Shown one piece after another: positions 24,850-61,406 of a stretch of DNA of 64,000 nucleotides. Positions within the stretch are counted from its first letter, which is position 1. Each line of letters begins with the position of its first letter. The DNA is from Oscillospiraceae bacterium (GTDB taxonomy: Bacteria; Bacillota; Clostridia; Oscillospirales; Acutalibacteraceae): assembly GCA_031265995.1 (NCBI GenBank), contig JAISBW010000025.1, forward strand, positions 9,264 through 73,263. The letters are read 5' to 3'. The translations under genes were made by a program, and so were the position numbers. Below the pieces are notes generated by a model. That model searched no databases and was not told where the DNA came from. It saw nothing but the letters and a program-made list of their open reading frames with translations.

Positions 24850-26913
24850 ATGAACGCTTTCAAAAGCAATATCTACAAATATCTTGGCGGAACGTGCCAA
24901 TATATGATACCACTGTACCAAAGAATTTACAGTTGGGAGCGCGAGCAGTGCGCCCGCCTTTGGAGAGACATCGTAAACCTCCACATCATGCACAGGGAGG
25001 GTCATTTCGTCGGTTCGATTGTTCGCATCGACGAGGATTCGGCGGCGGGGTCCACCCTTGCCATGATTATCGACGGCCAGCAGAGGCTCACCACGCTGAC
25101 CCTGCTTCTTGTCGCCTTGCGCGACTATGCGGCAGCTCACACAGACTGCGGTGTGAATCCAAACAAAATAACGAATATGCTGCTCTTGAACCAATACGAA
25201 ACGGGCAACGCAAAGTACAAGCTGCTCCTCACGCAGTCCGACAGGGGCGCGCTGATAAAGAAGATTGAAAACGCACCGATTCCCGACACGTTGAAATCTC
25301 GTGTGTTGGACAACTACGGCTTTTTCTCATGGCAGATAGGCAAAGGTGAGATTGCTCCATCCGACCTCTACGATGCCATCGGCAAGTTACAAATCGTGGA
25401 CATCGTCCTCGACCGCCAATACGACGACTCGCAGGCGATTTTTGAGAGCCTGAACTCTACTGGTATGGACTTGAAGGACTCCGACCTCATCCGCAACCAT
25501 CTATTGATGGGTTTGGATTCCGCGGCCCAGACGGACGTTTACAACAGCATCTGGCGGCCTACGGAACTGCTCTTTGGCTACGAGCATCAGAGCGAGTTGC
25601 TGGACAACTTCTTTCGTGACTATCTCACGATGAAATTGTGCAGGATTCCCCGCAAGAATGAGGTCTACAAAGAGTTCCGTACCTATCACAATGGCAACGG
25701 GATGACCATCCGCGACCTCTGCCGAGATATCTACAGCTTTTCCAAGCATTATACGGACATGTATTTTGTTAAGAGTAGCGATGCCATGCTGAAATCACTT
25801 TACGGCGATATGAAGACAATTCGTATGGAGGTTGCTTACCCGTTTCTTCTGAAAGCCCATGAAGACTACAGCAAGGGTTTAATAACCATCGAGGAACTTC
25901 GGGAAATCCTGCAGCTCTGCGTGAGCTACGTCCTGCGCCGTGCTGTATGCGACATACCGACGAACTCCCTGAACAAGACTTTCGCTACGATGAAAAACGA
26001 CATCAGACCGGACGATTACCTGAACTCGATGAAGGCGTTCTTTATACTTCTCGATTCCTACAAGGAGTTTCCGAACGACAGGCGTTTCCTCGACACCTTC
26101 CTGACAAGGGACATCTATCATATGAACCGCTGCGGTTATATCCTCGGGCGGCTTGAAAACTGGGGCAACAAGTCGGCGGTCAATGCGGAAAAGCTGACTA
26201 TTGAACACATTATCCCACAAAACTCGCACCTTTCCGCTGACTGGATATCCGTCCTCGGTAACGACTGGAGCAAAATTCAAAAGAAATACCTGCACACTAT
26301 TGGTAACCTGACGCTGACGTCGTACAACTCCGAGATGAGCGATTCGCCGTTTGCCGACAAGATGACGATGGACGGCGGATTCCAGCAGAGTGCACTTCGT
26401 CTTAATAAGTACGTCGTTACCCAGATTACTTGGGGTGAGCAGCAAGTTAACGAACGCGCTGCCCAGCTTGGCGAGATAGCAAAAAAGGCGTGGCCGTACC
26501 CGACACTCACGGAAGCTGAGCTTGCTCCTTATTGTAAGCAAGACAATGCCACTACAGAGTATACCCTCGAAAGCTATCAGTACTCGAATGCTTTTAACCG
26601 TATGCTATTTGAGAAACTAAACACCCGAATCCTCAATCTTGGTACCTATGTGAAACGGGAGTTCAAAAAGCTGTATATCGCCTACAAAACCAACACTAAC
26701 TTTGTAGATGTCATTATTCAGAATTCGCGGCTTCGATTGATAATCAATATGAAGTTTGCCGATATCATCGACCCGAAAGGCATCTGCAAGGACATCACTT
26801 GTGTCGGCAGATGGGGAAACGGCGATGTCGAGGTAGAGCTAAACAGCTTGGATGATCTTGACGATGTGATGGAGATTATCACACAGTCATTCAGGCAACA
26901 GGTTGTATCCTAA
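24850..26913 (+). CDS. DUF262/DUF1524 nuclease-family protein (GmrSD-like type IV restriction / SspE-BrxU-like)
   Basis: N-terminal DUF262 motif IIDGQQRLTTL. Central His-Me-finger DUF1524 motifs TIEHIIPQ and HTIGNLTLTSYN. An extra ~120-aa C-terminal domain. G+C is far above the surroundings. Confidence 0.8.
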   Translation: MNAFKSNIYKYLGGTCQYMIPLYQRIYSWEREQCARLWRDIVNLHIMHREGHFVGSIVRIDEDSAAGSTLAMIIDGQQRLTTLTLLLVALRDYAAAHTDCGVNPNKITNMLLLNQYETGNAKYKLLLTQSDRGALIKKIENAPIPDTLKSRVLDNYGFFSWQIGKGEIAPSDLYDAIGKLQIVDIVLDRQYDDSQAIFESLNSTGMDLKDSDLIRNHLLMGLDSAAQTDVYNSIWRPTELLFGYEHQSELLDNFFRDYLTMKLCRIPRKNEVYKEFRTYHNGNGMTIRDLCRDIYSFSKHYTDMYFVKSSDAMLKSLYGDMKTIRMEVAYPFLLKAHEDYSKGLITIEELREILQLCVSYVLRRAVCDIPTNSLNKTFATMKNDIRPDDYLNSMKAFFILLDSYKEFPNDRRFLDTFLTRDIYHMNRCGYILGRLENWGNKSAVNAEKLTIEHIIPQNSHLSADWISVLGNDWSKIQKKYLHTIGNLTLTSYNSEMSDSPFADKMTMDGGFQQSALRLNKYVVTQITWGEQQVNERAAQLGEIAKKAWPYPTLTEAELAPYCKQDNATTEYTLESYQYSNAFNRMLFEKLNTRILNLGTYVKREFKKLYIAYKTNTNFVDVIIQNSRLRLIINMKFADIIDPKGICKDITCVGRWGNGDVEVELNSLDDLDDVMEIITQSFRQQVVS

Positions 26914-29876: not shown

Positions 29877-30036
29877 GAGTCTATCTAGTATCTCCGAAAT
29901 AACACATATTTTAGTTAAAATTTTAAAATTTTGCATTGCTCGTTAGTTAAATACGCTAGTATTTGCCTTCCTCACATTTTAAATTTTAAAAATTTTATAA
30001 TAAAATCTGCACTACTTGGAGATATTAAACAGGCTC
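29877..30036. mobile_element. Family-B MITE, uninterrupted 160-bp copy
   Basis: GAGTCTATCTAGTATCTCCGAAATAACACATATTTTAGTTAAAATTTT...CTACTTGGAGATATTAAACAGGCTC, with terminal inverted repeats of about 35 bp. Confidence 0.85.
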
Positions 30037-30143
30037 TCAGACTATTGACGATTAGCGTTAAATAATAAACTTAAAATTGTGTTAAATAATTGTATGTTTT
30101 TCATTGAATATTAATTAGAGTTTAATTATGCTTTCAAAAATTA

Positions 30144-30238: not shown

Positions 30239-31225
30239 ATGTTGGGTTCAAAATTTAATTTCTTTAACAAATCTTTAGCAATGTTGCTTTCGATTGTAAT
30301 TAATGGTTCGGTAATTACTCAAATCGCATATTGTGAAGTTGATAAATCATCAGGAATTAAAGAACGGGCAAAAAGCTGGATAAGTGGAGAAATTAAGCGT
30401 ATAGCTATTGGAACAGTTGCAACTGTTGCACTAACAGGCTTAGCAATTGTTCTTGAAAATGAGTCAAGAAAATATAGAGTAGAACAATATGCCAGCGAAT
30501 TAAGAAAAACTTTCAATGTTGTCGATAACGTATTTACAAAAAAGCAGGAAGGTGTAGGTTGGTGTTGGATAGCGTGTTTACAAGGAATGTACAAACATAA
30601 AGGTATTGAATTATCTCAAGAACATATTTTTAGGGCAATATTTAATAGAAACCCAGAGTATCTTGAATCACGCAGAACAGAAAAGTTAATCATTGGCACT
30701 ACAGCACCAAATCATCTTGTAAGGTCAATAAATTCTTTAAATACAAATTACGAATATAATAAAGCAATAATTCATATTAATGGTCGCCGAGACGAAACTG
30801 CGATAAAAAATAGTATATTAGATTACTACAATTTAATAGGTAGAACAGTGTTCGCTATCATTGATAGCTTTACTGGGAGTTTTGCGGTTAATGATATAAT
30901 TGTTGTGCACTTTGTAAATGTTACAAATATTTCAGAAGACGCTATTACATTAGAAGATCCCCAGACTGGTTTGTCGCGTACAGAAAAATTGCAAGACTTC
31001 TGCCAACGTTACTATACCAGTGGTATAATAGGTAGTGCACCAATGATTGAGATGTATAGTGTGACGGCCTCAGGACTTAATTTGGCAACCGAAACCCACT
31101 ATGTTTGTGATTCTGGCGAAGATACTGGCTTTCACAAATTTTCGGTCTGTAATTCAGGTTTTATTCAACCACAGACACTTCTTACAGCTCTTGCATCAGC
31201 CAGTGTTCGGGGGAGTAAGAAATAA
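30239..31225 (+). CDS. Membrane-anchored papain-fold (C39-like) cysteine peptidase candidate
   Basis: Signal peptide plus a second TM segment, then KKQEGVGWCWIACLQGMY (a Gln ... Cys motif as in C39-like peptidases) and a downstream IIVVHFVNV His. Confidence 0.45.
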   Translation: MLGSKFNFFNKSLAMLLSIVINGSVITQIAYCEVDKSSGIKERAKSWISGEIKRIAIGTVATVALTGLAIVLENESRKYRVEQYASELRKTFNVVDNVFTKKQEGVGWCWIACLQGMYKHKGIELSQEHIFRAIFNRNPEYLESRRTEKLIIGTTAPNHLVRSINSLNTNYEYNKAIIHINGRRDETAIKNSILDYYNLIGRTVFAIIDSFTGSFAVNDIIVVHFVNVTNISEDAITLEDPQTGLSRTEKLQDFCQRYYTSGIIGSAPMIEMYSVTASGLNLATETHYVCDSGEDTGFHKFSVCNSGFIQPQTLLTALASASVRGSKK

Positions 31226-34962: not shown

Positions 34963-35124
34963 GAACCTGTATTCAAAAGAGCAAATTCCAAATTTTTGAA
35001 GAATTTTTCTTCAGCAATGATAAAAAAAGCACAATGAATACTTTATGTATTCTGAGAATTTTTGACAAAATTTTGAAAAAAATTATTGAAAATTAGGTAT
35101 TTTGATCCCTTTGAATACAGGTTC
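34963..35124. mobile_element. Family-A MITE, full length
   Basis: Canonical termini. The flanks are TAA (34960-34962) and TTA (35125-35127), so they are not identical here. Confidence 0.85.
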
Positions 35125-35255
35125 TTACTCTTCCCATTTTTAAAACCTCCAAAATTTTAGTGTATCTTTACTCTACACCTTTTAGGAGGTTTACACTGAA
35201 TTGGGGGTAAAATTCTATATTTTTTAAACCATTTCCACCTACAGGCATCTGGGCC

Positions 35256-36320
35256 CTAATCGGAGGGAAACATTTTTTTAAATATTCTTATATACATTCT
35301 GGAATTTTCAAAGTTTATATCTTTAAAACTACTTAAGTTCGTGCCATCGTTAATACGTCCTATCTTTGTTTCATAGATGTATGCGTTTGCTGCTGCACAT
35401 AAACTTTTCCAAAAGAATTCATTCCTATCGTCTTGTTGTTCGGGAGATCTTGATATAATTTGGTCCCATGCTGGAATAGCATATAAAATACCAAAAGAAT
35501 CTACTAGACCTAACGCTATTATGTTTGCTAAGCGACTTTCAGACAGTGAATTATGTTCGTGCTTAATTTTATCAAATATCCACAACATTGAAGTGGCTAT
35601 TTTTTGATACACAAAAAAAGCTTTTGCTTCTTTTTCTTCCGTCAGCATGCCGTTTGAATCAGCAAACGCATACACCATAAGTGCGGCAAAAACATTAAGC
35701 CCTTGCCGGTACTCAAATTTCCCTAACCCTGCCAACAATATTCTCTCGAATGCTTTAGATCCTTCGTTAACTTCGCTCAGGTATCGTTGCGTGTCCTCGC
35801 CGATTCTTTTCAGGTCTTCCATTATTTGTGTAAATTGACTTCCATATTTTGATTTGATATCTTCGAGCAGTTGGAATTCGGTATTGTAATTAGTTAAATC
35901 TTCTCGAGTACCACCCAATTTAGTAAACCAAATATCTGCGCGGTTGCTGGGTTTGGTTTTTATGTCTATCTCAAGTTGCTTGGCTTTTGCATCGTCTATC
36001 TCAAGTTGCTTGGCTTCTGTGTTCAGCTTTAACTGCCATACTAACATACCTGCTGTTAATGTTACTGCTACCCCTGTTCCTACTATCTTCAACACTTTAG
36101 CTAAAACGTCTGACTCTGAATTGACTATTTTTTCCCTCTTTCGGTCTAGATGATCAATCGTTAATTTAACAGCCGTGCTTGCACCACCGCTAAAACCAAT
36201 CAAAGCCGCCGTGAGAGTTGCTAAAAAAAAATCAAACTTTTCGCCTGTGGCTTTTCCCAGATTGTTTTGGCCAAAATTTCGTCTATTTCTAAAAAAATAC
36301 CTTTTCATGGATTTATTCAC
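35256..36320 (-). CDS. Hypothetical protein: N-terminal 2-TM hairpin plus helical domain
   Basis: 354 aa with two hydrophobic segments near the N-terminus and an internal 30-bp tandem duplication encoding AKQLEID twice. No family motif recognised. G+C is elevated. Confidence 0.55.
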   Translation of the reverse strand: MNKSMKRYFFRNRRNFGQNNLGKATGEKFDFFLATLTAALIGFSGGASTAVKLTIDHLDRKREKIVNSESDVLAKVLKIVGTGVAVTLTAGMLVWQLKLNTEAKQLEIDDAKAKQLEIDIKTKPSNRADIWFTKLGGTREDLTNYNTEFQLLEDIKSKYGSQFTQIMEDLKRIGEDTQRYLSEVNEGSKAFERILLAGLGKFEYRQGLNVFAALMVYAFADSNGMLTEEKEAKAFFVYQKIATSMLWIFDKIKHEHNSLSESRLANIIALGLVDSFGILYAIPAWDQIISRSPEQQDDRNEFFWKSLCAAANAYIYETKIGRINDGTNLSSFKDINFENSRMYIRIFKKMFPSD

Positions 36321-36421
36321 CTAGTTTTTAAATCTATTTTTATTTGACGTAAAGTGCCCTGATACTAGATAACGCCTAGTTTCACCGAAAAAAATTATAT
36401 TTATGATATCGCTGATAAATT

Positions 36422-37372
36422 TTAATTTTGATTTTGAAACATGGATAACCAAGTTTGCAATGCCTTAGAGTAGTCAACTTTGTCTACTCCGTCTAGTTCG
36501 TTTAACTTGTTGAGAGCTATTGGCCCTACGCGTTGAATCCATTCGAACAAACTTTTATTTTCTAATTCACTTATTTTTTTTACTAAGAAATCAAAATTTC
36601 CTATTTTTTCAGGTGTTATTGCCATTTTATGTATTAATTGTATTGATTGCCTTAATGACACTAATGATTGTACTTCGAATGCTCCAAGTGTAAATACTAA
36701 TGAATTAAAATTTTTCGTTTCCTCTTGTGTTATTCCCTCAAATGATAAAAGTTTTGTTATTGATAATTCTTCTTTTTCAAATCTTCCTATATCTTCTGAA
36801 GTAAATTGGCATTCTATTTTGAATAATTCAACTAAATAAAACAAAATATCTCTGTTTAGTTGGTTTATTAGTCCAGTTATATCTTCATCAGAATTTAATC
36901 GTAATAACTTTTCCTGAATTGAAAAAACTTCGAGAAACTGGTCTATTTCCAAATGATCAAACCTTGTAAAATAAGGTATACGCAAAAGCAACGCCATTAG
37001 CATTCTGTCTAATTCGCTTAAAGGATTTTTATTTCCAATTTCTAAATACATTTTTGTTAATTTTAAATTGTTATCCAGAATTAATTTATATCCTGATTTT
37101 ACATAAAGAATACGTCCGCCAATTATAACTGGTATAGAAAATAATGCTATCTTACCAAATACCTTTACTGGCTTAGGTGTCTTCGCCCAGTACCCACCCA
37201 ATTTCTTCTTTACTGCTTGCCAAGTGGATTCTTTTGTAATACTTCGAAAATCAGTGATGGGCGAACTTGCACCCGCCATTGTTCCTGTAAGTGCAAGCAT
37301 TGCTGCTATTCCTGCGCTTGCAAGCTTTTTTACAGCATTTGTCATTTGGCTTTCGAATTTTTCAATGTTCAT
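36422..37372 (-). CDS. Hypothetical protein: N-terminal 2-TM hairpin plus helical domain
   Basis: 316 aa with the same architecture as the downstream neighbour (two TM segments, then an all-helical-looking C-terminal domain). No family motif recognised. Confidence 0.5.
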   Translation of the reverse strand: MNIEKFESQMTNAVKKLASAGIAAMLALTGTMAGASSPITDFRSITKESTWQAVKKKLGGYWAKTPKPVKVFGKIALFSIPVIIGGRILYVKSGYKLILDNNLKLTKMYLEIGNKNPLSELDRMLMALLLRIPYFTRFDHLEIDQFLEVFSIQEKLLRLNSDEDITGLINQLNRDILFYLVELFKIECQFTSEDIGRFEKEELSITKLLSFEGITQEETKNFNSLVFTLGAFEVQSLVSLRQSIQLIHKMAITPEKIGNFDFLVKKISELENKSLFEWIQRVGPIALNKLNELDGVDKVDYSKALQTWLSMFQNQN

Positions 37373-37713
37373 AGCACCACCCCATTCATCAAAAATAGAA
37401 ACAAAAGTTTCGTTTTTAAATTTTCTTATTTGATTATATAATGTTTTTCTAGAAATTGCAAATTGTTGAAAATTGTAATTTTAAAATAATAAGACAAAAT
37501 TTAGTTTTAATTTTCACGTGTCGAGTTTAAATTTCTCAAAACTTGACTTTTTCAAAAACCTTAACCCGATCTTTAAAACTATTTTTACATCCGAAACTCC
37601 TCAGTCAAAAGCAGTGCTAAAAGATTTTCTAAGCGCTTTTACAGAGCAAAGTGCTATATGCGCTATATAAAGTAAATTTGTTAAAATAATTATTATTTTT
37701 TAAAAAATAAATC

Positions 37714-37742
37714 TTGACAATTTAAATAAAAAATTGTAAAAT
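37714..37742 (+). promoter_or_regulatory. Candidate sigma-A promoter
   Basis: TTGACA (37714-37719), a 17-nt spacer, then TAAAAT (37737-37742). It is about 38 nt upstream of GTG 37780. Confidence 0.45.
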
Positions 37743-37779
37743 AAAGATAGTGACATATTTTGTGCAATGGGGGTAAAAC

Positions 37780-39244
37780 GTGAAAAATTCATTATTTAAA
37801 AAATTCATCTTAAACACCATGTCTGCTCTTGTTTTATTTCCGACAATGAACACTCGCGTAGCTGCTGATCCTATAGAGGTCACTGTTCGGGTTGGATTTG
37901 TCGGTAAGTCAGGGGGTTGGCAAAACAATGATTATCAATAGTATGTATAGTAGGGACGATGCGAAACATAAAGAGTATACATCACCTAACTCGAAAGCTC
38001 ATTCCATGGTCCTAGAAAATGAGGATGGAATTAAAACCAGAGCTTTGTACACTGAGGACTTAAGCGGGCGGGAAAAACAGGAGGACGTTACTACTCATTG
38101 TCTTCGCAATTGTTCACTAGCCGTAATGACCGCTGATTTAAGAAGAGAAAGCGTTGAAGAATTTTCACAATGGTTTCCAATACGAACAAAAGAATGCCCT
38201 GGAGCAAAAATTGTTTTTGTGATAAATGGGCATGCGCCGTCTTCTTGTAACGCTAGTGAAAGATTTAATTCCGCAGTAGAAGCGGAGGATAGACTCAAAG
38301 AATTGTGTGAAAATATAGATCTTGGAGAATTTAATATTTACTGTGCCGATCTGTCAAAAGGAGACGAACTTACCGAACTGGTGAATAGACTAACTGGTCT
38401 GGCTTTGCAGTGTGCAAGAGAAAAAGAAGAAAAAATGAAAGAAGAGGAAGAAAAAAGGAAAGAAAGAGAAGAAAAAAGGAGAGAAGAGAAAGAAAGAGCA
38501 GCGGTTGCTAAATTAAATGCCGCCCATCTTACTGCTGTGATTTTTGGCGAGCCAGGGGTTGGGAAAACATCAATTTCAAAGATATGGCTTGGTGAAACCA
38601 TAAATCTTGGTGAAACCATAAATTTGGAAAGGGCAAATTTTGGTACTTCGTTGGAACGTGGATTCATAAAAAAACATGGAGATGTGATATCACTAATTCT
38701 TTACCTAGAACCAACTACGTCATCAGCCACAATTAATTTTGGAAGTCGTATCTTACCAATTGTAATGGTCTCTGACTTAAGACGAAAAAGCGTTGAATCC
38801 GAGGCATTTGCGCAATGCCTTCGAAGACTAAGAAGAAAATACCCTGAAGCAAAAATTGTTTTTGTGGTAAATCAACATGCGCCGTCTTCTTGTAACACTA
38901 GTGAGAAATTTGATTCCGTAGAAGAAGCGGAGAATAAACTCAGAGAATTGTATGAAAATGAGCGTAGTAGAAGACTTAATATTTGCCATGCCGATCTGTC
39001 AAAAGAAGATGAACGCACCAAACTGGCGGATAGATTAATTGATCTTGCTTTCAAGTGTGTGGAAGAGGGTAAATTACTGGGCGACGTACCTAAATCTAGG
39101 TATAATATCTTTGGAATATTGCCTTTCGCCATATTGCCGGTAGGCGGTTGGTATTGTTTTAAGTTCAGAAGAAAATCAATTGATAAGCAAATAAGTGCAC
39201 AGCCCGACCAGGAACCGAAAGAAAATGAAAATCAGATTGCTTGA
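37780..39244 (+). pseudogene. Tandem Ras-superfamily-like GTPase protein with C-terminal TM anchor, interrupted by a frameshift in a G5 run
   Basis: GTG 37780 (GGGGG SD) encodes a hydrophobic leader, then VRVGFVGKSG, and terminates at 37940. ORF 37892..39244 continues with VGKTMIINSMY in another frame. Removing one G from G5 (37912-37916) restores the P-loop GKSGVGKT. Domain 1 has DLSG (DxxG). A second P-loop, GEPGVGKT, follows a KE-rich linker. A TM segment lies near the C-terminus. Confidence 0.55.
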
Positions 39245-39402
39245 ATAATTCATATTATGTTATACTGTCCGCACGGGTGTTCTCCTTTGGTTAGTTTTTT
39301 CGTATTTTAACTTCACCGAACGAGGTCCGTTGTTATCTTGTTTTCTGTAGTGTATGCACTTGAGAATCTTAATTAAATTGCAAAATAATAGGGAGAATTT
39401 AG

Positions 39403-40134
39403 GTGTCCGGCCATTCAAGATGGAGCACAATAAAAAGAAAAAAAGAAAAAAGTGATGCCAATAAAGGCAAAGTTTTTACTAAAATTGGGCGTGAGCTTGC
39501 AGTTGCGGTGAAGGAGGGCGGTTCTGACGCCGGTGTTAATTCCCGTTTGCGCGAGTGTATTTTAAAAGCCAAAGCGTATAATGTTCCGAACGAAAATATA
39601 GAAAGAATCATAAAAAAAGCGTCCGGTTCGGATTCGGATGAAAATTATGAAAGTTTTATATACGAAGGCTACGGTCCGGCGGGAAGCGCTTTTATGGTTG
39701 ATATTTTAACGGAAAACCGAAACCGTACGTCAGCAAGCATAAGGAAGTATTTTAACAAAAACGGGGGAAATTTAGGAACATCTGGGTGTGTTTCTTTTAT
39801 GTTCAGACAAAAAGGTGTAGCTATTATAAAGAAAAATGAAAATTATAAAGAAGAAAAAGTTATGGAAGACGCAATTTTATCTGGTGCTGAAGATTTTGAA
39901 TCTGAAAAAGATTGTTTTATAATTATTTCGGAGAAAAGTGGTTGTGAATCAGTGAAAAGAAATCTTTTGGAATTAAACTATGAGTTTTTATCAACTGAAA
40001 TAGCTATGATTCCAGATTCTTACATAAAAATTACTGATTACGATTTAAAACTTAAAGCCAAGAATTTGATAGACGCACTCGAAGACGATGATGATGTGCA
40101 AAATGTTTGGCATAACTGTGAGTTTGATGATTAA
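39403..40134 (+). CDS. yebC: YebC/PmpR-family transcriptional regulator
   Basis: MSGHSRWSTIKRKK... is the invariant YebC N-terminus. 243 aa, GTG start. Confidence 0.9.
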   Translation: MSGHSRWSTIKRKKEKSDANKGKVFTKIGRELAVAVKEGGSDAGVNSRLRECILKAKAYNVPNENIERIIKKASGSDSDENYESFIYEGYGPAGSAFMVDILTENRNRTSASIRKYFNKNGGNLGTSGCVSFMFRQKGVAIIKKNENYKEEKVMEDAILSGAEDFESEKDCFIIISEKSGCESVKRNLLELNYEFLSTEIAMIPDSYIKITDYDLKLKAKNLIDALEDDDDVQNVWHNCEFDD

Positions 40135-40204
40135 AGGCGTGATTTAGCCTGTGTTTTATATTGTGGTGAACACGTTGAGTAAATTTTGTTTTTAGGTAAA
40201 TATT

Positions 40205-42022
40205 TTGAAATTTGTTTCGGTTGTCGTCCCCCTGTTCAATGAAGAAAGATATATCGATGATTTAATAAGTTCGATTTTAAAACAAGATTATAGTAAAGAA
40301 AACCTGGAAATATTATTTATAGACGGTGGTTCTTGTGATCTAACTCTTAAAATTATAGAAAAAAATATAAATTCTTCTTGCTTTGATATAAAATTAATAA
40401 ACAACCCGATGCGTACAGTCCAGCACGCGATGAATTTAGGGATAAAAAATTCAAAAGGCGAAATAATCGTAAGAATGGATGCCCATGCCGTTTATTCGCC
40501 GGATTATGTCTCAAAATGTGTTGAAGTCATTAGAAAAACAGGCGCTCAAAATGTTGGCGGGTTAATGCTTGCCAAAGGCAAAACAAAAATGCAAAAAATT
40601 ATCGCGGCCGCTTATCATATTAAATTTGTCCTTGGAGGCGGAAAGAATCACGATGAAAATTACGAAGGTTTTACGGATACCGTTTTTCTTGGGGCGTTTA
40701 ATAAAAAATATTTAAATATGATTGGCATGTATGACGAAAATTTTATTATTAATGAAGACGACGAATTAAATTATAGAATTATTGAAAACGGAGGTAAGAT
40801 TTTTGTTACGCCAGAGATAAAAAGTGTTTATTATCCGAGGGATAATATAAAAGAATTATTTAAACAGTACTTAAATTACGGACTTTGGAAGGTAGCAGTA
40901 ATAAAAAAACATAAAAAACCGGCTAGAATTTCTCATTTAGTGCCTGCTTTATTTGTTGTTTTTTTGTTATTTTTCCCGTCTTTATTTTTTGTTTATAAAT
41001 CGCTTTTTTTCTCATATATTTTAGTTCTAGTTATTTACGCTTGTCTAAATATTTATTTTTCGTTTGGAAGTAAAATCATATCTGGTTTTTTTGAAAAAAT
41101 TACGCTTGCCTGGGTTAGTTTTATAATCCATACATCTTACGGATTGGGGTTTTTATTTGGATTATTTAAATTTTGTTTTAAAAAATTTAAAAAAAGTTAT
41201 TCAAAAATAAAAATTTCGCCTGAAAATTTACGTGAACTACAGTTAAAAAGTTTGGACTTATTTATTCGTTTTAAAGATTTTTGTGAAAAAAACAACTTAA
41301 AGTTTTTCCTTTGCGGTGGGTGTTGTATAGGTGCAATAAGGCATAAAGGGTTCATACCGTGGGATGACGATATCGATGTTTTTATGCCAAGAGAAGATTA
41401 TGAAAGATTATATAGAATTTATAATGAAGAAAATTCCTATTGCATTAAAACTACAGAAAAAGTGTTTTCCGGAAATATTTTTACTACAATAGTCGATAAA
41501 AATACAACACTAATAAAAAAAGAACAGATTGGAACTAAAATACCAAAAGGCATAACAATAGATATTTTGCCGCTCGATGCGTGTCCTTCGAGCTTTTTTG
41601 ATCGAAAAATCCAAAAGATTAGCGCTATGATTTATTCGCTTTATACCGCGCGGGTGATACCTAAAAATCACGGTAAAGCTATTGAGTTAATGGGAAAATT
41701 AGCTTTGAAGTTGGTGTTTAATGATAAGATCAGATATAGGATTTCTAGATTTTGCGAAAAAAATATGTCAAAATATAAAATCGATGAATGCGAATTTTTT
41801 ACCGAACTTTGTTCGGGTCTTGGTTACATGAACAATAAATATCCTAAAGAAATTTTCAAATCATCTATTTTAAAGGAATTCGAAGGAATTTTAGTACCGC
41901 TGCCATATGATTATGATAAATATTTAAAAATCGTTTTTGGGGAATATATGAAACTTCCTCTAAAAGAGGAACGGATTCCACACCACGATATAATTTTTAT
42001 GGATTTGTCTCATGGAAATTAG
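40205..42022 (+). CDS. Fusion protein: GT2 glycosyltransferase, TM region and LicD-family phosphotransferase
   Basis: N-terminus VSVVVPLFNEERYI..FIDGGSCD..NEDDE (GT2). The middle has about 3-4 TM helices. The C-terminus has LKFFLCGGCCIGAIRHKGFIPWDDDIDVFM (LicD motif). The TAG stop overlaps the first base of a MITE. Confidence 0.75.
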   Translation: MKFVSVVVPLFNEERYIDDLISSILKQDYSKENLEILFIDGGSCDLTLKIIEKNINSSCFDIKLINNPMRTVQHAMNLGIKNSKGEIIVRMDAHAVYSPDYVSKCVEVIRKTGAQNVGGLMLAKGKTKMQKIIAAAYHIKFVLGGGKNHDENYEGFTDTVFLGAFNKKYLNMIGMYDENFIINEDDELNYRIIENGGKIFVTPEIKSVYYPRDNIKELFKQYLNYGLWKVAVIKKHKKPARISHLVPALFVVFLLFFPSLFFVYKSLFFSYILVLVIYACLNIYFSFGSKIISGFFEKITLAWVSFIIHTSYGLGFLFGLFKFCFKKFKKSYSKIKISPENLRELQLKSLDLFIRFKDFCEKNNLKFFLCGGCCIGAIRHKGFIPWDDDIDVFMPREDYERLYRIYNEENSYCIKTTEKVFSGNIFTTIVDKNTTLIKKEQIGTKIPKGITIDILPLDACPSSFFDRKIQKISAMIYSLYTARVIPKNHGKAIELMGKLALKLVFNDKIRYRISRFCEKNMSKYKIDECEFFTELCSGLGYMNNKYPKEIFKSSILKEFEGILVPLPYDYDKYLKIVFGEYMKLPLKEERIPHHDIIFMDLSHGN

Positions 42023-42183
42023 AACCTATATTCAAAAGGGCAAATTCCAAATTTTTTAAGAATTTTTCTTCAGCAATGATAAAAAAAACACAATGAATAC
42101 TTTATGTATTCTGAGTATTTTTAATAAAATTTTGAAAAAAATTATTGAAAATTGGGTATTTTGATCCTTTTGAATACAGGTTC
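42022..42183. mobile_element. Family-A MITE between the GT2-LicD gene and tarI
   Basis: GAACCTATATTCAAAAGGG...CCTTTTGAATACAGGTTC with TTA repeats at 42019-42021 and 42184-42186. Confidence 0.9.
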
Positions 42184-50367: not shown

Positions 50368-51288
50368 ATGGGTAGTAATTTTTGTTGCTGCCAAAAGATA
50401 GAAACTAAAAAAACTTTTTCAAATAATGTAATATTTGTGCCAGATGAAAAAATAACTATTGATAGTCAAGCGTTAAGCGAAACTTTAGATACTCGGGCTA
50501 CTGTTTTTTTATCTAAGATACCTTTAATAGGGCATTTACTTGATTATTTTTTTAGTTCGCCAGAAAAAAACAGACTATGTTTCGTAAAACCTAATAAATA
50601 TTCTGATAATCCACTTGAATTTGAATTGTTTCCAGAAGGATCACCGAAACCAGAAGATGTGCTGCAAGGTCACTTAGGGCTGTGCTACTTTTTCGCAGTA
50701 CTGTCAACAGTCGCCGAAAGAGATCCAAATTTAATAAAAACTAACATGGTAGAAGATAACGAGGGAAACGTTTCAGTTAAATTTTTTGATCCGAGTGATG
50801 GCAACCCGTTTTACATTAAGGTACAAAAAACAGTACCTGAACTTCCTAAAAACTTTAAATTCGTTTATAATAATTGTCTTTGGGTTCAAATATATTTAAA
50901 AGCCTTTATAGCTTCGCAATTTTCAGGTTTGCAGGGTTATATATTAGATTTTAATTGTATAAATTATAAATATGCTGAAGGTGGACTTATGGATTTAGTT
51001 ATAAGAATGATAACAGGAAAAGAGACAGAAACATCTAATGCTTTAAGCGTGTGGCTTGCAAAAAAAAATGATCTATATTCAAAAATTGAAAAAACTTTAT
51101 CAGATTCTGGATACGTAACGTGTGATTTCGCATCTCATTTGAATGTGATAAAGCTTTTTTTGGGCGGAGTTTCCAACGAAGGGTTGGTTCGAGGTCATGC
51201 TTATTCCATAGAAAAGGTGTACAAAGATAAAAACGGTCAAAGATGGATAATTATAAGAAACCCATGGGGATATTTTTCCTCAACATAG
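50368..51288 (+). CDS. Calpain-type (peptidase C2-like) cysteine protease, C-terminally truncated
   Basis: QGHLGLCYFFAVLS (calpain QGxLGDCW Cys motif), RGHAYSI (His) and IIRNPWG (Asn). The N-terminus reads MGSNFCCCQK. The ORF stops 5 codons after RNPWG at the prophage boundary. Confidence 0.7.
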   Translation: MGSNFCCCQKIETKKTFSNNVIFVPDEKITIDSQALSETLDTRATVFLSKIPLIGHLLDYFFSSPEKNRLCFVKPNKYSDNPLEFELFPEGSPKPEDVLQGHLGLCYFFAVLSTVAERDPNLIKTNMVEDNEGNVSVKFFDPSDGNPFYIKVQKTVPELPKNFKFVYNNCLWVQIYLKAFIASQFSGLQGYILDFNCINYKYAEGGLMDLVIRMITGKETETSNALSVWLAKKNDLYSKIEKTLSDSGYVTCDFASHLNVIKLFLGGVSNEGLVRGHAYSIEKVYKDKNGQRWIIIRNPWGYFSST

Positions 51289-51468: not shown

Positions 51469-53271
51469 CTATACCGCATACGTAATCCCGCTCCCTTCAA
51501 AAATAATGCCCTGCTGTAAAAGATAAATCGCGTTGATAAGTGCCGCGACCATATCGACTTTACCTGAACTCTTCTTTTTATGGATGTATCTATTCATATT
51601 TGTGTCGTAAACACACATGGCATTTGAAAAATTGATTTCAAGCAAAGTATTCTTTTCATATGAAAATTCTGTATTGATAATTTTTTCCTGCAAAAGTTTT
51701 GTCGGGGCATGGAGCGTATCGCTGTGCTGCCTAATCTCGACAACACTATATTTTGTCAGCCACTTTTGCGCAGAGCTAAGGCAGTTGTATCTATCAAAGC
51801 CGATTGCCCTGATTGTTACACCGAACCTATCTTCAAGTTTAAAGACAAAATCTTCAACAAAACCATAATCTATTGTCTTATTGCCGCAAGGATAACATTT
51901 TTTGTGTTTTATAAATCTTTTGTAATCAAGCTTTTCAAATTTGTTTTTCTCTTCGATTCTTCCTTCAGGAATAAAGCACCAAGCGTCTGCCAGAATATGG
52001 TTGTCTTCATCGACCGCGCACATCACAACGGCGGTATTGTCCGTCGTCATTGACAGATCAACTCCGACATAGACTTCTCTTCCTTTCCAATCGATTTTGT
52101 TAACTTTGCATCTTTTCACGTCCGAGATATCTATAAAGCTTTCAGTTCCGGCCCCTTGATAAATGATATTGCAGTGTTTAGTAAGGAAGTTTTCTCTTGC
52201 GGATTCCATCGCAATTGCTTTTGCTCTCTTTTTTAGAAGATCTTCCCAAATTTCTGGGATTTCAAGAGCGACCGGATTTGCGTGTTTAAGAATCAGATCA
52301 TCGGAGGTCCAGCTTTGAGAAGTCTGATTAGGTTCACTTTGATTTTGGGAATCTTTTATCTGAAACTTGTTGGATTTGTCGTAGAATTCCGATTCAATCG
52401 ATGTATTTACCGATGTATTTGATGCACTGAAGTCCGGCTCATAAAGAAGCGCAAAAAGAGTTTCGTCTTCTGTAATGCCATCTAAAACTTGTTTTGCATA
52501 TTTAATTTCTTCTTCAAACGGATTATCAATTGTCGGGTATTTTGTGCTGATTATGCATCCAAGCTTATTTAAAATATTAAGCTGACCGCTTCTCATTGAT
52601 TCAATTGCATACGCGTTCGGCAATGCTCCGACTTCATCTGCTAAAAAAACATTGGGGAGTTTGCCGTCCATTCTTGAATTAGAGTAATTAAGGGGAAAGT
52701 ACTGATTTTCATTAAGCTCGAATTTAATGTAATCTCGAAGAATTTTAAACCTTGGAGTTTCGTCCTTCATATACACTTTTGGGCTACTCTTTAAAATTTC
52801 TTCAATTGCGGTTTTTACTTCTCGACTTAAACTTCCATCTGGGGCCACAGAGTAGAACTTGGAGAACTTCGGTTCCAGCAAGAAAAGAAGGATAAAAGTA
52901 GTTGCAATTGTAAAAGTCTTAAAGTTCTTTCTTGCGATTTCAAGAATTGCGGTTTCATATCTTCTTCTGGTTGGGTTGTCTTTGTAAACTACGCAAAGAA
53001 TCGATGTATAAAACAGCCACTGATACCCGGTTGAGCAGTCATAAATTGTTTCGCCGGCCTTTAAGCCTCGAGGCATGATTAACAATTTTAGGGTGTTTTC
53101 TATGCGTTCGAGCATTTCTAAATTCACAAAATATTTTGTATTTTTGATATTTTTATCTTTGTTGTTTTCGCCATTTGAGATATCTAAAAACTTTTGACAT
53201 TGTAATTTTACATATTTTGGTGCATCTTCTGATTTGATTGCCCGATTTGCGTATTTTGAAGCTTTAATCAA
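51469..53271 (-). CDS. Phage terminase large subunit
   Basis: 600 aa with a Terminase_1-like layout: an N-terminal ATPase region and a C-terminal RNaseH-like nuclease (VGVDLSMTTDNTAVV, GFDRYN, KVDMVAAL). It follows a P27-type TerS. Confidence 0.8.
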   Translation of the reverse strand: MIKASKYANRAIKSEDAPKYVKLQCQKFLDISNGENNKDKNIKNTKYFVNLEMLERIENTLKLLIMPRGLKAGETIYDCSTGYQWLFYTSILCVVYKDNPTRRRYETAILEIARKNFKTFTIATTFILLFLLEPKFSKFYSVAPDGSLSREVKTAIEEILKSSPKVYMKDETPRFKILRDYIKFELNENQYFPLNYSNSRMDGKLPNVFLADEVGALPNAYAIESMRSGQLNILNKLGCIISTKYPTIDNPFEEEIKYAKQVLDGITEDETLFALLYEPDFSASNTSVNTSIESEFYDKSNKFQIKDSQNQSEPNQTSQSWTSDDLILKHANPVALEIPEIWEDLLKKRAKAIAMESARENFLTKHCNIIYQGAGTESFIDISDVKRCKVNKIDWKGREVYVGVDLSMTTDNTAVVMCAVDEDNHILADAWCFIPEGRIEEKNKFEKLDYKRFIKHKKCYPCGNKTIDYGFVEDFVFKLEDRFGVTIRAIGFDRYNCLSSAQKWLTKYSVVEIRQHSDTLHAPTKLLQEKIINTEFSYEKNTLLEINFSNAMCVYDTNMNRYIHKKKSSGKVDMVAALINAIYLLQQGIIFEGSGITYAV

Positions 53272-53307
53272 TTTGGTTCACCTCCCGTTAAAATTTTTAA
53301 ATATTTT

Positions 53308-53688
53308 TTAGTCAATCGAATTTCTTCTGCCGGAAATGAATTCAAGCAAAGGATCCGGTTCGTCACTGCCGCCTCTGGCTCTTAGCAAAGTTATGATTTT
53401 AACAAGCGTCGCCACGGTTTTATTCGCACAGTCCGCGGTTTTGTTGTAAGCGCTTACGGCAGGATGAACATAAGTATTTTTTGTTCCTTTGGAATAACTT
53501 TTCTCCACAGTCATTCCTTCTTCATAAATAGTCTTTTCAAGATCGGTAAGCATTTTGATTTGCACTTGATATCTTTTAAAAGTCGTCAAGAAGAAAAAGT
53601 TTGATTCGACGCCGTATTTTTCGGCAATTCGAAGAATTTCTTTTGCTTGCTCGTTTAAATTAAGATTCTGGTTCATAATTTCCTCCAA
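53308..53688 (-). CDS. Phage terminase small subunit (P27 family)
   Basis: 126 aa with a pattern typical of P27-family TerS (YVHPAVSAYNKTADCANK). Located immediately upstream of TerL. Confidence 0.65.
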   Translation of the reverse strand: MEEIMNQNLNLNEQAKEILRIAEKYGVESNFFFLTTFKRYQVQIKMLTDLEKTIYEEGMTVEKSYSKGTKNTYVHPAVSAYNKTADCANKTVATLVKIITLLRARGGSDEPDPLLEFISGRRNSID

Positions 53689-53690
53689 AT

Positions 53691-54943
53691 TTATGAAATT
53701 AATTCCGCTTTCTTATCGGTTAAATTTTCCCATCGTTTTATGATCACATCGCAGTATCGTGGGTCTAGTTCCATCATGAAACATTTTCTGTTTAGTTCTT
53801 CACAGGCAATTAAAGTTGTTCCGGAGCCGCCGAATAAATCTAGAACGATTTCTCCTTCTTTACTGCTGTTTTCAATTAGTTTTGCAATCATCGGAACCGG
53901 TTTCATTGTCGGATATTCATCATTTCTTAAAGGTCTGTTAAATTCTAAAATTGTAGTTTGCGTTCTGTCGTCAATAAAATAATGTGAATCTCCGGATTTC
54001 CAGCCGTAGACGCAAGGTTCGTGTTTCCACTGGTAGTCTTGGCGTCCAAGGACTAAAGCGTTTTTATTCCAGATAAGCTGTTGTTTGATTTCCCAATCTA
54101 TTTCCCGGCAAGCTTGATAAACGGATAATGATTCTTTATTTGCAAACCAGATGTAGAAAGCTCCGCCTTGTTTAAGATACTTATCAGCATTTTAAAAGCC
54201 AAAATCAAAAACGAGCGAAATTCTTCGCTCGTCTGTTTGTCATTTAAAATTTTATTCCTTTCTTTTGTTTTACCTTCGTATCCAATATTGTACGGCGGGT
54301 CTGTAACAAATAAATCAATTATTTCATTTACTTTATTTATTTTATTTCCTTTTAGCTCAGAATTAATTAGCTTAGAATTCATAAGTTTAGAGACGTCTTC
54401 AGGATTTGTCGAATCTCCGCACATCAGGCGATGCCGGCCAAGACTGTAAATTTCACCGAGCTTTGATTTCGGTTCTTCTTTTAAAATTTCATTGATTTTG
54501 TCTGAATCAAAATTATCATCTGTTATTTCTTTTGAATCATTCAAAACCAAATCAAAATTAAGATCATCAAACCCGGTTAGAGAAATATCAAAATCAAGAC
54601 TTTTTAAATCTTCAAGCTCAATCTTAAGAATATCAAAGTCCCATCCTGCATCTAAAGCCAATTTGTTGTCGGCAATTATGTAAGCTTTCTTTTGTGTTTC
54701 TGTCAGGTCCTCTACAAACAGGCATGGAACTTCTTCCATCCCAATTTGCTTTGCTGCTAAAACTCTGCAGTGGCCTGCGATTATTCCAAAATCTGCGTCA
54801 ATTAAGACTGGATTTACGAAACCGAATTCTTCTATTGATTTTGCAATCTTGGAAATCTGTTCTTCACTGTGAGTTCTGGCGTTATGTTCATATGGCTTTA
54901 ATTTTTCAATCGCGATATTTTGGTATTTTCTCATTTTTCTCAC
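53691..54943 (-). pseudogene. ParB-N-domain / beta-class DNA N6-adenine (DPPY) methyltransferase with one frameshift
   Basis: ORF 54098..54943 carries the ParB-like N-domain (GHCRVLAAKQIG) and motif IV DPPYN. The other frame continues NADKYLKQGGAFYIWFANKE...EYPTMKPVPMIAKLI..LDLFGGSGTT (motif I) to 53691. One extra base in the T4 run 54190-54193 (A4 on the coding strand) would fuse them. Confidence 0.7.
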
Positions 54944-55294
54944 CTCAAAAAAAATAGCCTCAAACTCAGCTACAATACTGGTTTAAAGCAAATTTCAAAA
55001 AATACATGAATTGTAAATCCGGTGTAAACGGAGGGCCAGCGTGGTGTTGATTTGTTTTATTTTTTGGTCTATCCGATACCCGGGGGATGCTCTTTACTCT
55101 TAAAAATAAATTTTTGTTTAAAAAATAAACGGTTGCTTGAAACATTTATTTAGATTAGATTTATTTTTGTGTTTAAAAACAAAAGCTTGTTTGAAATAGA
55201 TTTTACTTAGATTTTAATTTTTTAAACTTCTTAAGCATAATTTGCTACGATTTCTTTTTATCGGATCCATTTCCGTACTTTTCATTTCTTGTTC

Positions 55295-55534
55295 CTAAAT
55301 TTTTTTAATCATTTCTTGCTCATTAATAATTGCTTTAATAATTTCAAGCTTGATCTTTCCATCGTCTGCTTGATCATGATGCTTCTTGCATAGTGTGACA
55401 AGGTTGTTTGGTTTAAACGCAAGCTCTTTGCCCTCATCAATCTTGATTGCGTGATGGACTTCAATATCGCTGCAGTTGTACACGCCTTGACGCAAACAAA
55501 CTTGGCACAAATACATATCTCGTTTTCGAATCAT
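55295..55534 (-). CDS. Phage HNH endonuclease (true start probably further upstream)
   Basis: CQVC...EVHH...N..TLCKKHH is an HNH core. The frame stays open upstream to 55696 and encodes a Cys-rich KSCKHCSRIH..ICP segment, but with no ATG, GTG or TTG. An ATT at 55658-55660 lies 9 nt after a GAAGGAG SD. Confidence 0.65.
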   Translation of the reverse strand: MIRKRDMYLCQVCLRQGVYNCSDIEVHHAIKIDEGKELAFKPNNLVTLCKKHHDQADDGKIKLEIIKAIINEQEMIKKI

Positions 55535-55750
55535 TTCACGGGTTTTGCCCCATTTATACGTGCTTCTCAGGGCGAATTGTTCGGTTTTGTTTTTTGGTCT
55601 TTTAGGGCAAATGTAGTCTTCTTTGTGGATTCGAGAGCAATGTTTACAGGATTTTAGAATTAGGTTCAGCTCCTTCTTCAGACGTAAAAAGCCGCCTCAA
55701 TCGAAGCGGTGATTAAAACTTGTCGGCAAATAAGATTTTCTTTTTGTGGG

Positions 55751-55782
55751 AAAATAAAAGTCCTGCAAAATTTATTGCAGGA
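55751..55782 (-). terminator. Rho-independent terminator between the late-regulator gene and the HNH/packaging genes
   Basis: 8-bp stem tcctgcaa/ttgcagga (55761-55782) with a 6-nt loop. On the minus strand it is followed by CTTTTATTTT. Confidence 0.55.
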
Positions 55783-55893
55783 TTTATTAAAAAATTAAGG
55801 AGTTGATTAAAGCTTTCGTAAACCCTGTGGATGAATTTATAAAAGCTTTCAATTTACACTATAACACAGCTAAACCGAACAAAACGAACAACT

Positions 55894-56289
55894 TTAATTT
55901 CTGCTCAAAAAACGATTATGAATCATTCTTACAGTGTCTTCAGTATTTCTCCCGCCAACCGAAAAAGCTACTTTTCTCCAGCTCATACCGCCAATATACC
56001 GAAGCGAAAGAATTTGCCTGACGAGACTGTCGTCTACTGAATTGATATATCTGTTTATACGGTTAAATTCAAAGAAGCACTTTTTTATATTCAAATCGAT
56101 CAGACTTTTAAGATCCGCAATTTCTGCCGCATATTCCGATATTTTATCTCTAAATCCAGGGATTCTGGGCATTCCGGTAATAAACCGAGAACAGGAAGTC
56201 GCTAAATTTTCAAATTCCTCAAGCTGTTTTGTTTGCATCTCTATTTCTTTCTTAAGCCAATAAACCTGGGAAAGTTCTTTCTTAGTCAC
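55894..56289 (-). CDS. Phage sigma-70 region-4-like late transcriptional regulator (DUF1492/ArpU-like)
   Basis: 131 aa. Coiled N-terminus, then a C-terminal HTH segment (LVRQILSLRYIGGMSWRKVAFSVG) typical of phage sigma-like regulators located before packaging genes. Confidence 0.55.
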   Translation of the reverse strand: MTKKELSQVYWLKKEIEMQTKQLEEFENLATSCSRFITGMPRIPGFRDKISEYAAEIADLKSLIDLNIKKCFFEFNRINRYINSVDDSLVRQILSLRYIGGMSWRKVAFSVGGRNTEDTVRMIHNRFLSRN

Positions 56290-56455
56290 AGATTTTGTCC
56301 TCCGAAAAAGGTTCTCTGATTGTCGGAGGTTGACTTTTGTTGGCCTTGTTTTTCTAAGATTGACTTTAATTGTATTTAGTTTACTTTTATTTTACTTTTA
56401 ATTTTTTTAACTATTTTAACTATTTTTAGTTTACAAAACTATTTTACTAATTCTT

Positions 56456-58405: not shown

Positions 58406-58446
58406 GCCAATTTCTCACTTATAAATTAATTTCCCTCGCCAAAAAT

Positions 58447-58646: not shown

Positions 58647-58657
58647 ATGGCATGAAT

Positions 58658-61387: not shown

Positions 61388-61406
61388 TCTCCAAATTTAA
61401 TAATCC

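Follow-up and report, generated by a model that had tools for sequence, protein, structure and literature searches.

A frameshifted gene with tandem Rab-like G domains belongs to a paralogous family of predicted surface proteins in an Oscillospiraceae genome

What is a protein resembling the Rab GTPases of eukaryotes doing in a member of the Clostridia, and is the gene that specifies it still able to produce it? These questions are raised by a locus at 37780-39244 on the forward strand of a 64,000-nucleotide stretch of DNA (hereafter the window; 34% G+C, ~80% coding) taken from contig JAISBW010000025.1 of an Oscillospiraceae metagenome-assembled genome (MAG; GCA_031265995.1). In the annotation, LBK29_02395 and the next coding sequence are both listed as 'hypothetical protein', whereas the analysis presented here shows that they form a single frameshifted Rab-like gene. 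A preliminary description of the letters had read the locus as two Ras/Rab-like small-GTPase domains in tandem, placed between a hydrophobic leader and a C-terminal transmembrane (TM) anchor and split at a tract of five G residues (the G5 tract). Taking all of the results together, we consider it probable that the locus is a lineage-specific member of a paralogous, eukaryote-derived (Rab-type) family of G-domain surface proteins, exported through Sec and anchored by a TM segment, and that this copy has been frameshifted.

As sequenced, the gene consists of an upstream open reading frame (ORF) fragment of 53 amino acids (aa), annotated as LBK29_02395 (37780-37941, +), and a downstream ORF of 450 aa (37892-39244, +), which is open to its natural stop codon. 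The two ORFs overlap in different frames around a GGGGG run at 37912-37916 (+), located inside the codons for the P-loop of the first G domain. Removal of one G from this run fuses both ORFs into a 487-aa protein reading ...VRVGFVGKSGVGKTMIINSMYSRDD... and containing ...VRVGFVGKSGVGKTMIINS.... The split at the G5 tract therefore stands as first described. The repair proposed at that time was to restore one base; a single-base change does join the ORFs, but the base has to be removed, not added. Since two extra Gs instead of one fewer would spoil the P-loop (GKSGGVGKT), the repair that makes sense is to four Gs (G4). In the paralog P0001 the corresponding P-loop codons read TCAGGGGTTGG, that is, G4, and the fifth G of the window gene is therefore a +1 insertion. 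The Logan contig of run SRR14710922 is identical over 37716-42111, with the G5 tract included, although this contig and the MAG contig may share reads. Runs of G5 or C5 occur at 16 other places in the window.

The repaired protein comprises, in order, a signal peptide, Rab-like G domain 1, a Glu/Lys/Arg-rich linker, Rab-like G domain 2, a C-terminal TM segment and a basic tail. The motifs listed in the preliminary description, namely DLSG, TADLRRESVEEFSQW, AKIVFVINGHA, the KE-rich linker, GEPGVGKT, VSDLRRKSVESEAF and KIVFVVNQHA, are all present where it had placed them, as is the repetition of the whole module. Its remark that G+C is elevated holds in direction (0.39 in the gene versus 0.341 in the window), but the difference is marginal; because 0.39 falls in the range of the housekeeping genes, we rejected elevated G+C as a mark of recent transfer. 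An exact look-up among 15 billion proteins found neither the repaired 487-aa product nor a 438-aa product. A word-indexed homology search with the full 487-aa query gave no match, the KE-rich linker having probably swamped the query, and a first scan of genome contigs with a protein query was likewise negative. Metagenome contigs were scanned with protein patterns and, separately, with a degenerate 61-nt DNA pattern of the signal peptide, again with no match, in a collection that evidently does not contain these samples.

G domain 1 (residues 34-211 of the corrected protein; 37879-38413, +) was assigned from Pfam Roc and Ras matches, PDB sequence matches and family alignments. The full protein scores 48.7 bits against Roc (PF08477; cut-off 27) and 24.6 bits against Ras (PF00071; cut-off 21.6) over residues 38-150. 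Domain 1 alone scores 40.5 and 22.6 bits respectively, so that the Ras-superfamily assignment made from the letters passes both thresholds for this half; an NCBIfam small_GTP match to the repaired protein was sub-threshold. A search of PDB sequences with domain 1 returned only Rabs, with Ypt6 first (9e-5), followed by Rab6 and Rab11, and the alignment places DLSGRE opposite DTAGQE and INGHA opposite VGNK. Once the frame is corrected, the P-loop reads GKSGVGKT, in keeping with the likeness to the Rab/Ras G1 motif that had been suggested. It is followed by the G3 motif DLSG, with Arg instead of the catalytic Gln, by NGHA at the G4 position and by the G5 motif DLSK. The RabF motifs (IGxDF, KLQIWDTAGQE, YYRGA and others) are not found in the window gene, which has TSPNSKAH and YTEDLSGRE. 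It also has no C-terminal CC/CXC prenylation motif, and ends in a TM segment and tail.

The linker that follows (38414-38527, +) is built of tandem units of ~21 nt (Tandem Repeats Finder: period 21, 3.4 copies, 86% matches); repeat family D2 spans the same stretch, which may form a single alpha-helix spacer. G domain 2 (residues 250-426; 38528-39058, +) was recognized by BLASTP to domain 1, AlphaFold and Foldseek. On its own it is matched in Pfam at P-loop level only (Roc 13.2, below the cut-off). BLASTP nevertheless pairs it with domain 1 at 9e-31 (54% identity over 102 residues), and tblastn pairs it with P0001 at 8e-26. An AlphaFold model based on a 16-sequence alignment has a mean pLDDT of 73.4, with most of the core above 85, and its elements run in the order beta1-alpha1-beta2-beta3-beta4-alpha3-beta5-alpha4-beta6-alpha5. 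Nearly all of the top 50 PDB structures retrieved by Foldseek with this model are Rabs (among them Rab35, Rab1, Rab21 and Rab8), at probability 1.0 and with target-normalised TM-scores of 0.6-0.74. As modelled, domain 2 has the small-GTPase alpha/beta fold and is Rab-like, which bears out the tandem reading for the second half as well.

The P-loop of domain 2 (GEPGVGKT) is intact and its G4 position reads NQHA, so that NKxD is replaced in both domains, as the preliminary description had seen. It had also seen that G3 is lost from domain 2, where YLEPT is found and DxxG is not. This domain is likely to be a pseudoGTPase. A perfect 18-bp tandem duplication (LGETIN x2; 38588-38623, +), first noticed in the same description and confirmed here, lies in the alpha1-beta2/switch I region of domain 2. 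It sits where the low-confidence switch I stretch of the model begins (construct residues 31-50; block pLDDT 57 and 46).

How did the tandem arrangement arise? In the stretch from beta4 to the last helix, which forms their C-terminal half, each domain has the other as its closest relative (56% protein identity, and 79% DNA identity over 259 nt), which indicates intragenic duplication or gene conversion. The N-terminal halves, containing the P-loop and both switch regions, are 16% identical. For the C-terminal halves we obtained a dS of 0.18, a dN of 0.27 and an omega of ~1.5, calculated from ~9 synonymous differences. These comparisons fit a partial duplication or gene conversion of fairly recent date, after which change was relaxed or diversifying. 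Family-wide, the fastest-evolving part is the face that in Rabs contacts effectors, GTPase-activating proteins (GAPs) and guanine nucleotide exchange factors.

Upstream of the gene, a sigma-A-type promoter (TTGACA-17-TAAAAT; 37714-37742, +) matches the consensus at 11 of 12 positions and is the best promoter-like site within 35000-39500. The count of promoter-like sites in this region equals chance expectation. The call is far better supported by conservation across paralogs than by the match to the consensus. The promoter core (-35 box, spacer and -10 box) is near-identical at five of six paralog loci (the window gene, P0001, P0002, P0013 and a 279-aa gene at locus L007); hence the near-consensus promoter of the preliminary description recurs upstream of four other members of the family. 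The 5' untranslated region (37743-37779, +), as read from the sequence, carries a G-rich ribosome-binding site (GGGGG at 37769-37773) and is partly conserved among paralogs.

Residues 1-29 (MKNSLFKKFILNTMSALVLFPTMNTRVAA; 37780-37866, +) are predicted to be a signal peptide on the basis of hydropathy, charge pattern and family conservation. A basic N-terminus, a hydrophobic stretch of 13-15 residues and VAA followed by DP make up a Sec-type pattern, in which cleavage would occur before DP. What had been described as a hydrophobic leader thus has the shape of a Sec signal peptide that is conserved across the family. It is in fact the best conserved part of these proteins, with 62-84% nucleotide identity among same-sample paralogs versus 53-63% for the mature domains, and the 61 nt upstream show pairwise DNA identities of 67-80% among the five promoter-sharing loci. 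P0013 has the family promoter although its mature domain is only ~15-22% identical in protein sequence to the two domains of the window gene. The Logan contigs of the window gene, P0001, P0002 and P0006 all start 60-70 nt upstream of the start codon, as expected, since the sequence there is repeated. Two family members, P0006 (L007, ~20-40) and P0014 (L004, ~15-35), are without the family promoter and have instead an element, GGTTTTAGAACAGGTCTAAT, just upstream. The two share this element despite coming from different samples, and it does not occur in the window.

At the opposite end of the protein, hydropathy identifies a TM anchor (IFGILPFAILPVGGWYCFKF; residues 443-462; 39107-39166, +). It is followed by RRK and a basic tail (RRKSIDKQISAQPDQEPKENENQIA), which together with the stop codon occupies 39167-39244 (+) and would be cytoplasmic by the positive-inside rule. 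The anchor had already been pointed out, and we find that it recurs: equivalent segments are present in P0002, P0005, P0006, P0013, P0014 and the 279-aa gene of L007, and a QPDQ motif of the tail recurs behind the anchor of P0001. The family members are alike in hydropathy and in the positive-inside pattern. Under the Sec and positive-inside rules, the G domains would lie outside the membrane and be held there at the C-terminus.

To which proteins is the window gene related? A HMMER scan of 1.84 billion representative proteins gave 16 matches, consisting of eight family proteins, the gene's own 53-aa fragment (P0004) and seven Rab-like proteins ending in CC; P0017, a named Rab of Pelomyxa schiedti, raises the non-family Rabs to eight. 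The family proteins start with an MKNSLFKK-type leader (MKNSLFKKFISS.MAALVLFP..N.RV.ADP). Seven of the eight are full-length with a single G domain, most of them with a C-terminal TM segment, and the remaining one, P0007, is an 84-aa fragment. The MAG of the window gene, or its sample, is the source of seven of the eight and of the neighbouring 279-aa paralog on L007; six of these are traced by an NCBI accession or an LBK29_ locus tag, no accession being on record for P0007 and the L007 gene. P0014 derives from another metagenome. The LBK29_ MAG holds at least nine paralogs. NKxD is found in none of the seven full-length aligned paralogs; Asn alone is kept in six and lost in P0013 (LSDFGS). 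Several paralogs retain DTAG or DxSGQ, and P0001 retains both TIGADF and IWDTAG. Since residual Rab motifs occur in proteins that have no NKxD, the family descends from a Rab and lost the guanine-specificity residues early. In a search of one genome each for 185,579 species, the sole relative was a Rab-like gene of 'Candidatus Improbicoccus pseudotrichonymphae'.

An origin from MglA-like proteins was rejected, given that the non-family relatives are Rab-like proteins ending in CC, including the named eukaryotic Rab P0017 (at least one of them, P0015, being bacterially encoded). In P0015 itself (L010 5620-6300), a signal-like leader is combined with a canonical Rab domain that has DTAGQE and NKQD, and the C-terminus bears the prenylation motif CCK, a hint at alternative anchoring. 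It lies on a bacterial contig (GidB, RF-1, Sua5 and CoaE), adjoined by a ubiquitin C-terminal hydrolase gene at L010 3966-4877. In a separate observation, the last 20 residues of the JGI version of P0005 match the translated intergenic stretch 29982-30041 (-) of the window with 80% identity, suggesting that this is a repeated intergenic element read through by the P0005 gene call.

These features allow a model for the function of the family to be outlined. Its members would be transcribed from a common strong promoter and directed by a common signal peptide to export through Sec. The C-terminal TM segment would then keep them attached to the outside of the bacterial membrane, while the short basic tail stays within the cell. 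In that position they could act by mimicry, or could bind and sequester partners of the host's Rabs on the surface of the bacterium; such a role has been proposed for Rab-like proteins in related endosymbionts of protists. Neither domain of the window protein is a canonical GTP switch, because both are without NKxD, domain 1 has Arg for the catalytic Gln and domain 2 is without DxxG. For this reason mimicry or sequestration is the role suggested, and we do not propose a regulated GTPase cycle for this protein. What the data show is the anatomy of the gene, its homology, the fold of domain 2, the family, the common 5' cassette and the insertion; export topology, an intracellular lifestyle, host targets and loss of function are inferred. 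The gene-count data hint, indirectly, that the genome of the host MAG may be small. Besides the window gene, the eukaryote-like genes of the same window include a calpain-type protease and a candidate TBC protein; no ATP/ADP translocase was found within the 64 kb.

With respect to the state of the gene, the sequenced form is most likely a very recent pseudogene or OFF allele, since the additional G among the P-loop codons disrupts the reading frame. Other members are damaged as well. P0001 (L002) has an in-frame TAA at 686-688, after which the same frame is intact through the linker, TM anchor and basic tail (689-895, 68 codons), and further damaged copies are the 84-aa fragment P0007 and P0003, which has an aberrant tail. 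Several copies thus have single simple lesions and no further decay. Recent pseudogenisation within a birth-and-death family would account for such a pattern, and so would on/off variation at the level of the population or, at the window gene, a consensus error.

Several points weigh against the picture of a degenerate, surface-exposed Rab family in an intracellular bacterium, of which this copy is inactivated. The loss of NKxD does not prove loss of nucleotide binding. The signal peptide and the topology are read solely from hydropathy and sequence pattern, and an omega above 1 is based on just the nine or so synonymous differences mentioned above. The window still holds Spo0A, a class A penicillin-binding protein, phosphofructokinase and a prophage, which speaks against placing the bacterium among intracellular symbionts with small genomes. 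In addition, the G5 tract could be a consensus error or a strain variant, and the 450-codon downstream frame is wholly open at 34% G+C, which argues against long-standing inactivation.

A first alternative is that the gene is intact, the fifth G being an assembly or consensus error or a minority allele, and that the 487-aa surface protein is made normally. There is no second lesion in the 450 open codons downstream, and the promoter and signal peptide are undamaged and match those of other paralogs. However, the G5 tract is present in two assemblies, the MAG contig and the Logan contig, though reads may be common to both; short G5 runs are seldom miscalled in short-read consensus, and the in-frame protein was not found in the exact look-up. 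On this evidence we regard an intact gene as rather unlikely. A related proposal would make the locus phase-variable: through slippage in the G tract, and through simple lesions in other paralogs, individual Rab-like surface proteins would be turned on or off in the population. In its favour, the genes form a multicopy surface family in which promoter and signal peptide are conserved as a cassette while the mature domains diverge fast, at least two copies have a single simple lesion with an intact frame beyond it (the G5 tract here and the TAA in P0001), and the in-frame tandem repeats also indicate slippage. Nevertheless, tracts of G4 or G5 are below the length of at least 7 that is usual for useful slippage rates, the TAA nonsense codon is not reversible by slippage and no allelic mixture was seen, so that a contingency locus seems to us quite unlikely.

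A different objection concerns the role of the family, which might be endogenous, in the envelope or in signalling for example, rather than directed towards a eukaryotic host. Ras-like GTPases are known from prokaryotes (MglA is one), and three proteins discussed below (the TBC-like protein, a 328-aa protein and the Improbicoccus Rab-like protein) have layouts that are classically placed inside the bacterium. On the other side, the closest relatives outside the family are Rab-like proteins with CC at the end, among them the Pelomyxa Rab P0017 (though P0015 is on a bacterial contig), and the PDB matches are to Rabs only. Moreover, an exported P-loop domain would be without a nucleotide supply outside a host cytosol, and the family is found in one lineage, whose only species-representative relative belongs to a known protist endosymbiont. 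An endogenous role is therefore very unlikely in our estimation. Weakest of all is a programmed +1 ribosomal frameshift at TCA-GGG-G, in which Gly-tRNA would re-pair from GGG to the next GGG to give the full-length protein: the re-pairing is perfect and restores exactly GKSGVGKT, but the A site GGT is neither a slow nor a stop codon, there is no recognisable stimulator and paralog P0001 is simply G4 and in frame, and we consider this mechanism most improbable. We accordingly retain a recently frameshifted member of an exported Rab-type family as the preferred reading.

Two genes away from the window gene lies the candidate for a TBC-type RabGAP-like protein, LBK29_02385 (350/354 aa; 35256-36320, -). 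Its match to PF00566 (22.3-23.8 bits, E = 4e-5 to 1e-4) is below the cut-off of 25.2. The protein contains the TBC signature motifs in order: RADIW (RxxxW), IMEDLKR (IxxDxxR, the Arg finger) and YRQG (YxQ, the Gln finger). A homologue from another Oscillospiraceae MAG (P0024, LBJ32_03205), 31-34% identical, has RADIW, IEDDLAR and FRQG; it has no match to PF00566, and there is no Rab-like neighbour at its locus (L006). When LBK29_02385 was aligned with five solved TBC domains using hhalign, the catalytic fingers were in register, with an E of 0.11 that is not significant. An AlphaFold model from two sequences was all-helical and unusable (pLDDT 38.7), and PDB sequence searches with the whole protein, a two-sequence profile and the motif region gave no TBC match. 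On balance we lean slightly towards a true TBC fold. The layout of the protein (hydrophobic segment, loop, TM, domain) is the same as that of the Improbicoccus Rab-like protein and would classically leave its domain inside the bacterium.

Between this gene and the window gene is LBK29_02390 (316 aa; 36422-37372, -), which is divergently transcribed; the spacer between the window gene and the divergent genes is 407 nt. LBK29_02390 has one hydrophobic segment (residues 69-91), a C-terminal domain of unassigned type and an alanine-rich, signal-like N-terminal stretch that falls short of the hydropathy cut-off. It has no Pfam or PDB match, no homologue beyond itself and no relation to the TBC-like protein. 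The flanking housekeeping genes encode LeuRS, PFK, IspF, TatD, YebC, a GT2-LicD protein and IspD. The 328-aa protein referred to above (LBK29_02360; 30239-31225, +) has a layout of signal peptide, loop, TM and domain and no Pfam match; its GWCWIAC motif resembles the active site of cysteine proteases.

Elsewhere in the window, 50368-51288 (+) encodes a calpain-family (Peptidase_C2) cysteine protease (E = 3e-16), another eukaryote-like gene on the contig, and 13778-16525 (+) encodes a 915-aa protein with a calcineurin-like metallophosphoesterase domain. The eukaryote-like genes listed for a related endosymbiont include one for a Metallophos protein (PMC10579323). A GmrSD-type restriction endonuclease gene with a DUF5655 domain (24850-26913, +) forms a patch of 45-51% G+C in a 34% G+C genome and was probably acquired horizontally; rRNA was rejected as the cause of this high-G+C patch at 25-27 kb, which corresponds to the GmrSD gene, and an Rfam scan of the window found one tRNA only. 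A lone gene at 18085-18843 (-) matches a contractile-injection-system tube protein (PF19266, E = 6e-10), and an extracellular contractile injection system (eCIS) has been reported in a related rumen Acutalibacteraceae MAG (bioRxiv 10.1101/2025.07.29.667580). Finally, 51469-63656 (-) is a prophage-like block with a terminase large subunit, ParB, an SNF2 helicase, a VapE-like primase and a family A DNA polymerase.

Combining the family with its neighbourhood, a bolder and rather speculative scenario can be drawn, to which we assign a low likelihood. The bacterium would coat its surface with variable pseudo-Rabs in which a TM helix stands in for the prenyl anchor. Inside a protist it would thereby show a chosen 'organelle identity' or soak up Rab regulators, copies would be toggled by simple lesions such as the one in this G4/G5 tract, and the co-located TBC-type GAP, its Arg and Gln fingers being intact, would supply in trans the catalytic Gln missing from the bacterial Rab-like proteins. 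A nearby TBC RabGAP, if confirmed, would be the first in this bacterial group; one has been reported in an Amoebophilaceae symbiont of rumen ciliates. If the G domains do face the host cytosol, a Gram-positive symbiont would be mimicking Rabs at its surface by means of Sec alone, and the family would offer a tractable example of how a switch protein, once transferred horizontally, decays to a scaffold.

How does the family compare with known systems? In wall-less relatives of the Firmicutes that live inside or attached to host cells, the paralog families of phytoplasma 'sequence-variable mosaic' proteins and mycoplasma variable surface lipoproteins likewise combine a conserved promoter and signal peptide with fast-diverging mature parts and Sec export. 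Their mature domains are unrelated to those described here, however, and the window family has no lipobox and no evident homopolymer switch in its promoter. Miro/Gem1 resembles the window protein in having two G domains and a C-terminal TM anchor. It differs in that the window protein has a charged linker, no EF-hands (Pfam), domains that arose by local duplication and a signal peptide, which implies the opposite topology. A Miro-like origin was rejected because there are no EF-hands and the duplication is local; the likeness is convergent only. With eukaryotic Rabs (Ypt6/Rab6 by sequence; Rab35, Rab1 and Rab21 by fold) the window gene shares the G-domain fold, the P-loop, the DxxG of domain 1 and membrane attachment at the C-terminus. 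In contrast to these Rabs, it is without NKxD, the catalytic Gln, RabF motifs and C-terminal Cys, a TM helix replaces prenylation, and a signal peptide is present.

Among bacteria, Rab-like GTPases were long thought to be limited to Legionella, and since 2023 they have been known in gut-protist-dwelling Clostridia too. The Rab-like effectors of Legionella are substrates of the Dot/Icm type IV system. As is proposed for the present family, they are Rab domains obtained from protists by horizontal transfer, in intracellular bacteria, with mimicry presumed; unlike them, the window family is predicted to be Sec-exported and TM-anchored and has degenerate G4 and G3 motifs. Across the genus there are 184 small-GTPase domains, which retain Rab structural features and are often fused to U-box, ankyrin or F-box domains (bioRxiv 10.1101/350777).

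The closest comparison is with the Clostridia that Takahashi et al. (2023; PMC10579323) described as endosymbionts of termite-gut protists, and with the related small-genome MAGs that they reported from other animals. In that work, 'Ca. Improbicoccus pseudotrichonymphae' CfP3-15 was found to have 18 genes for small GTPases of Rab/Roc/Rho type, mostly Rab, and Sec signal peptides occur in many of them; of 42 eukaryote-like genes, at least 20 encode a signal peptide, and host manipulation was proposed (PMC10579323). Neither TBC nor transmembrane anchoring is mentioned in the text or supplement of that study. The remark in the preliminary description that such a gene is unusual for a Firmicute is consequently true in general but not new, since genes of this kind are known in endosymbiotic Clostridia (PMC10579323). 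Like the Improbicoccus/'Acutalibacteraceae' small-genome clade, the present bacterium is a low-G+C member of the Oscillospirales with Rab/Roc-type G domains in multiple copies and other eukaryote-like genes nearby, and the window gene has both the Rab/Roc domain and the predicted Sec signal peptide of the 'Acutalibacteraceae' endosymbiont GTPases.

The Improbicoccus protein recovered in our search (L005 9593-10645) scores 85.9 bits against Ras and keeps DISGQ, CKSD at G4 and SAK. Upstream of its gene, two adjacent ORFs of 119 and 147 aa (L005 7919-9011) have identical N-terminal halves, including a signal-like leader, and form a local duplicate pair. In the Improbicoccus protein the signal peptide and TM precede the G domain, whereas the window family is anchored at the C-terminus; the window family further differs in being without NKxD throughout and in its common promoter and signal-peptide cassette, and the window gene in being tandem. 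Rab-like GTPases with Sec signal peptides were thus already known in related endosymbiotic Clostridia, and what is new here is a tandem, TM-anchored form without NKxD. The result is a distinct design, in which at least nine genes of one MAG share a common promoter and signal peptide, a C-terminal TM helix takes the place of a lipid and one member has a duplicated G domain.

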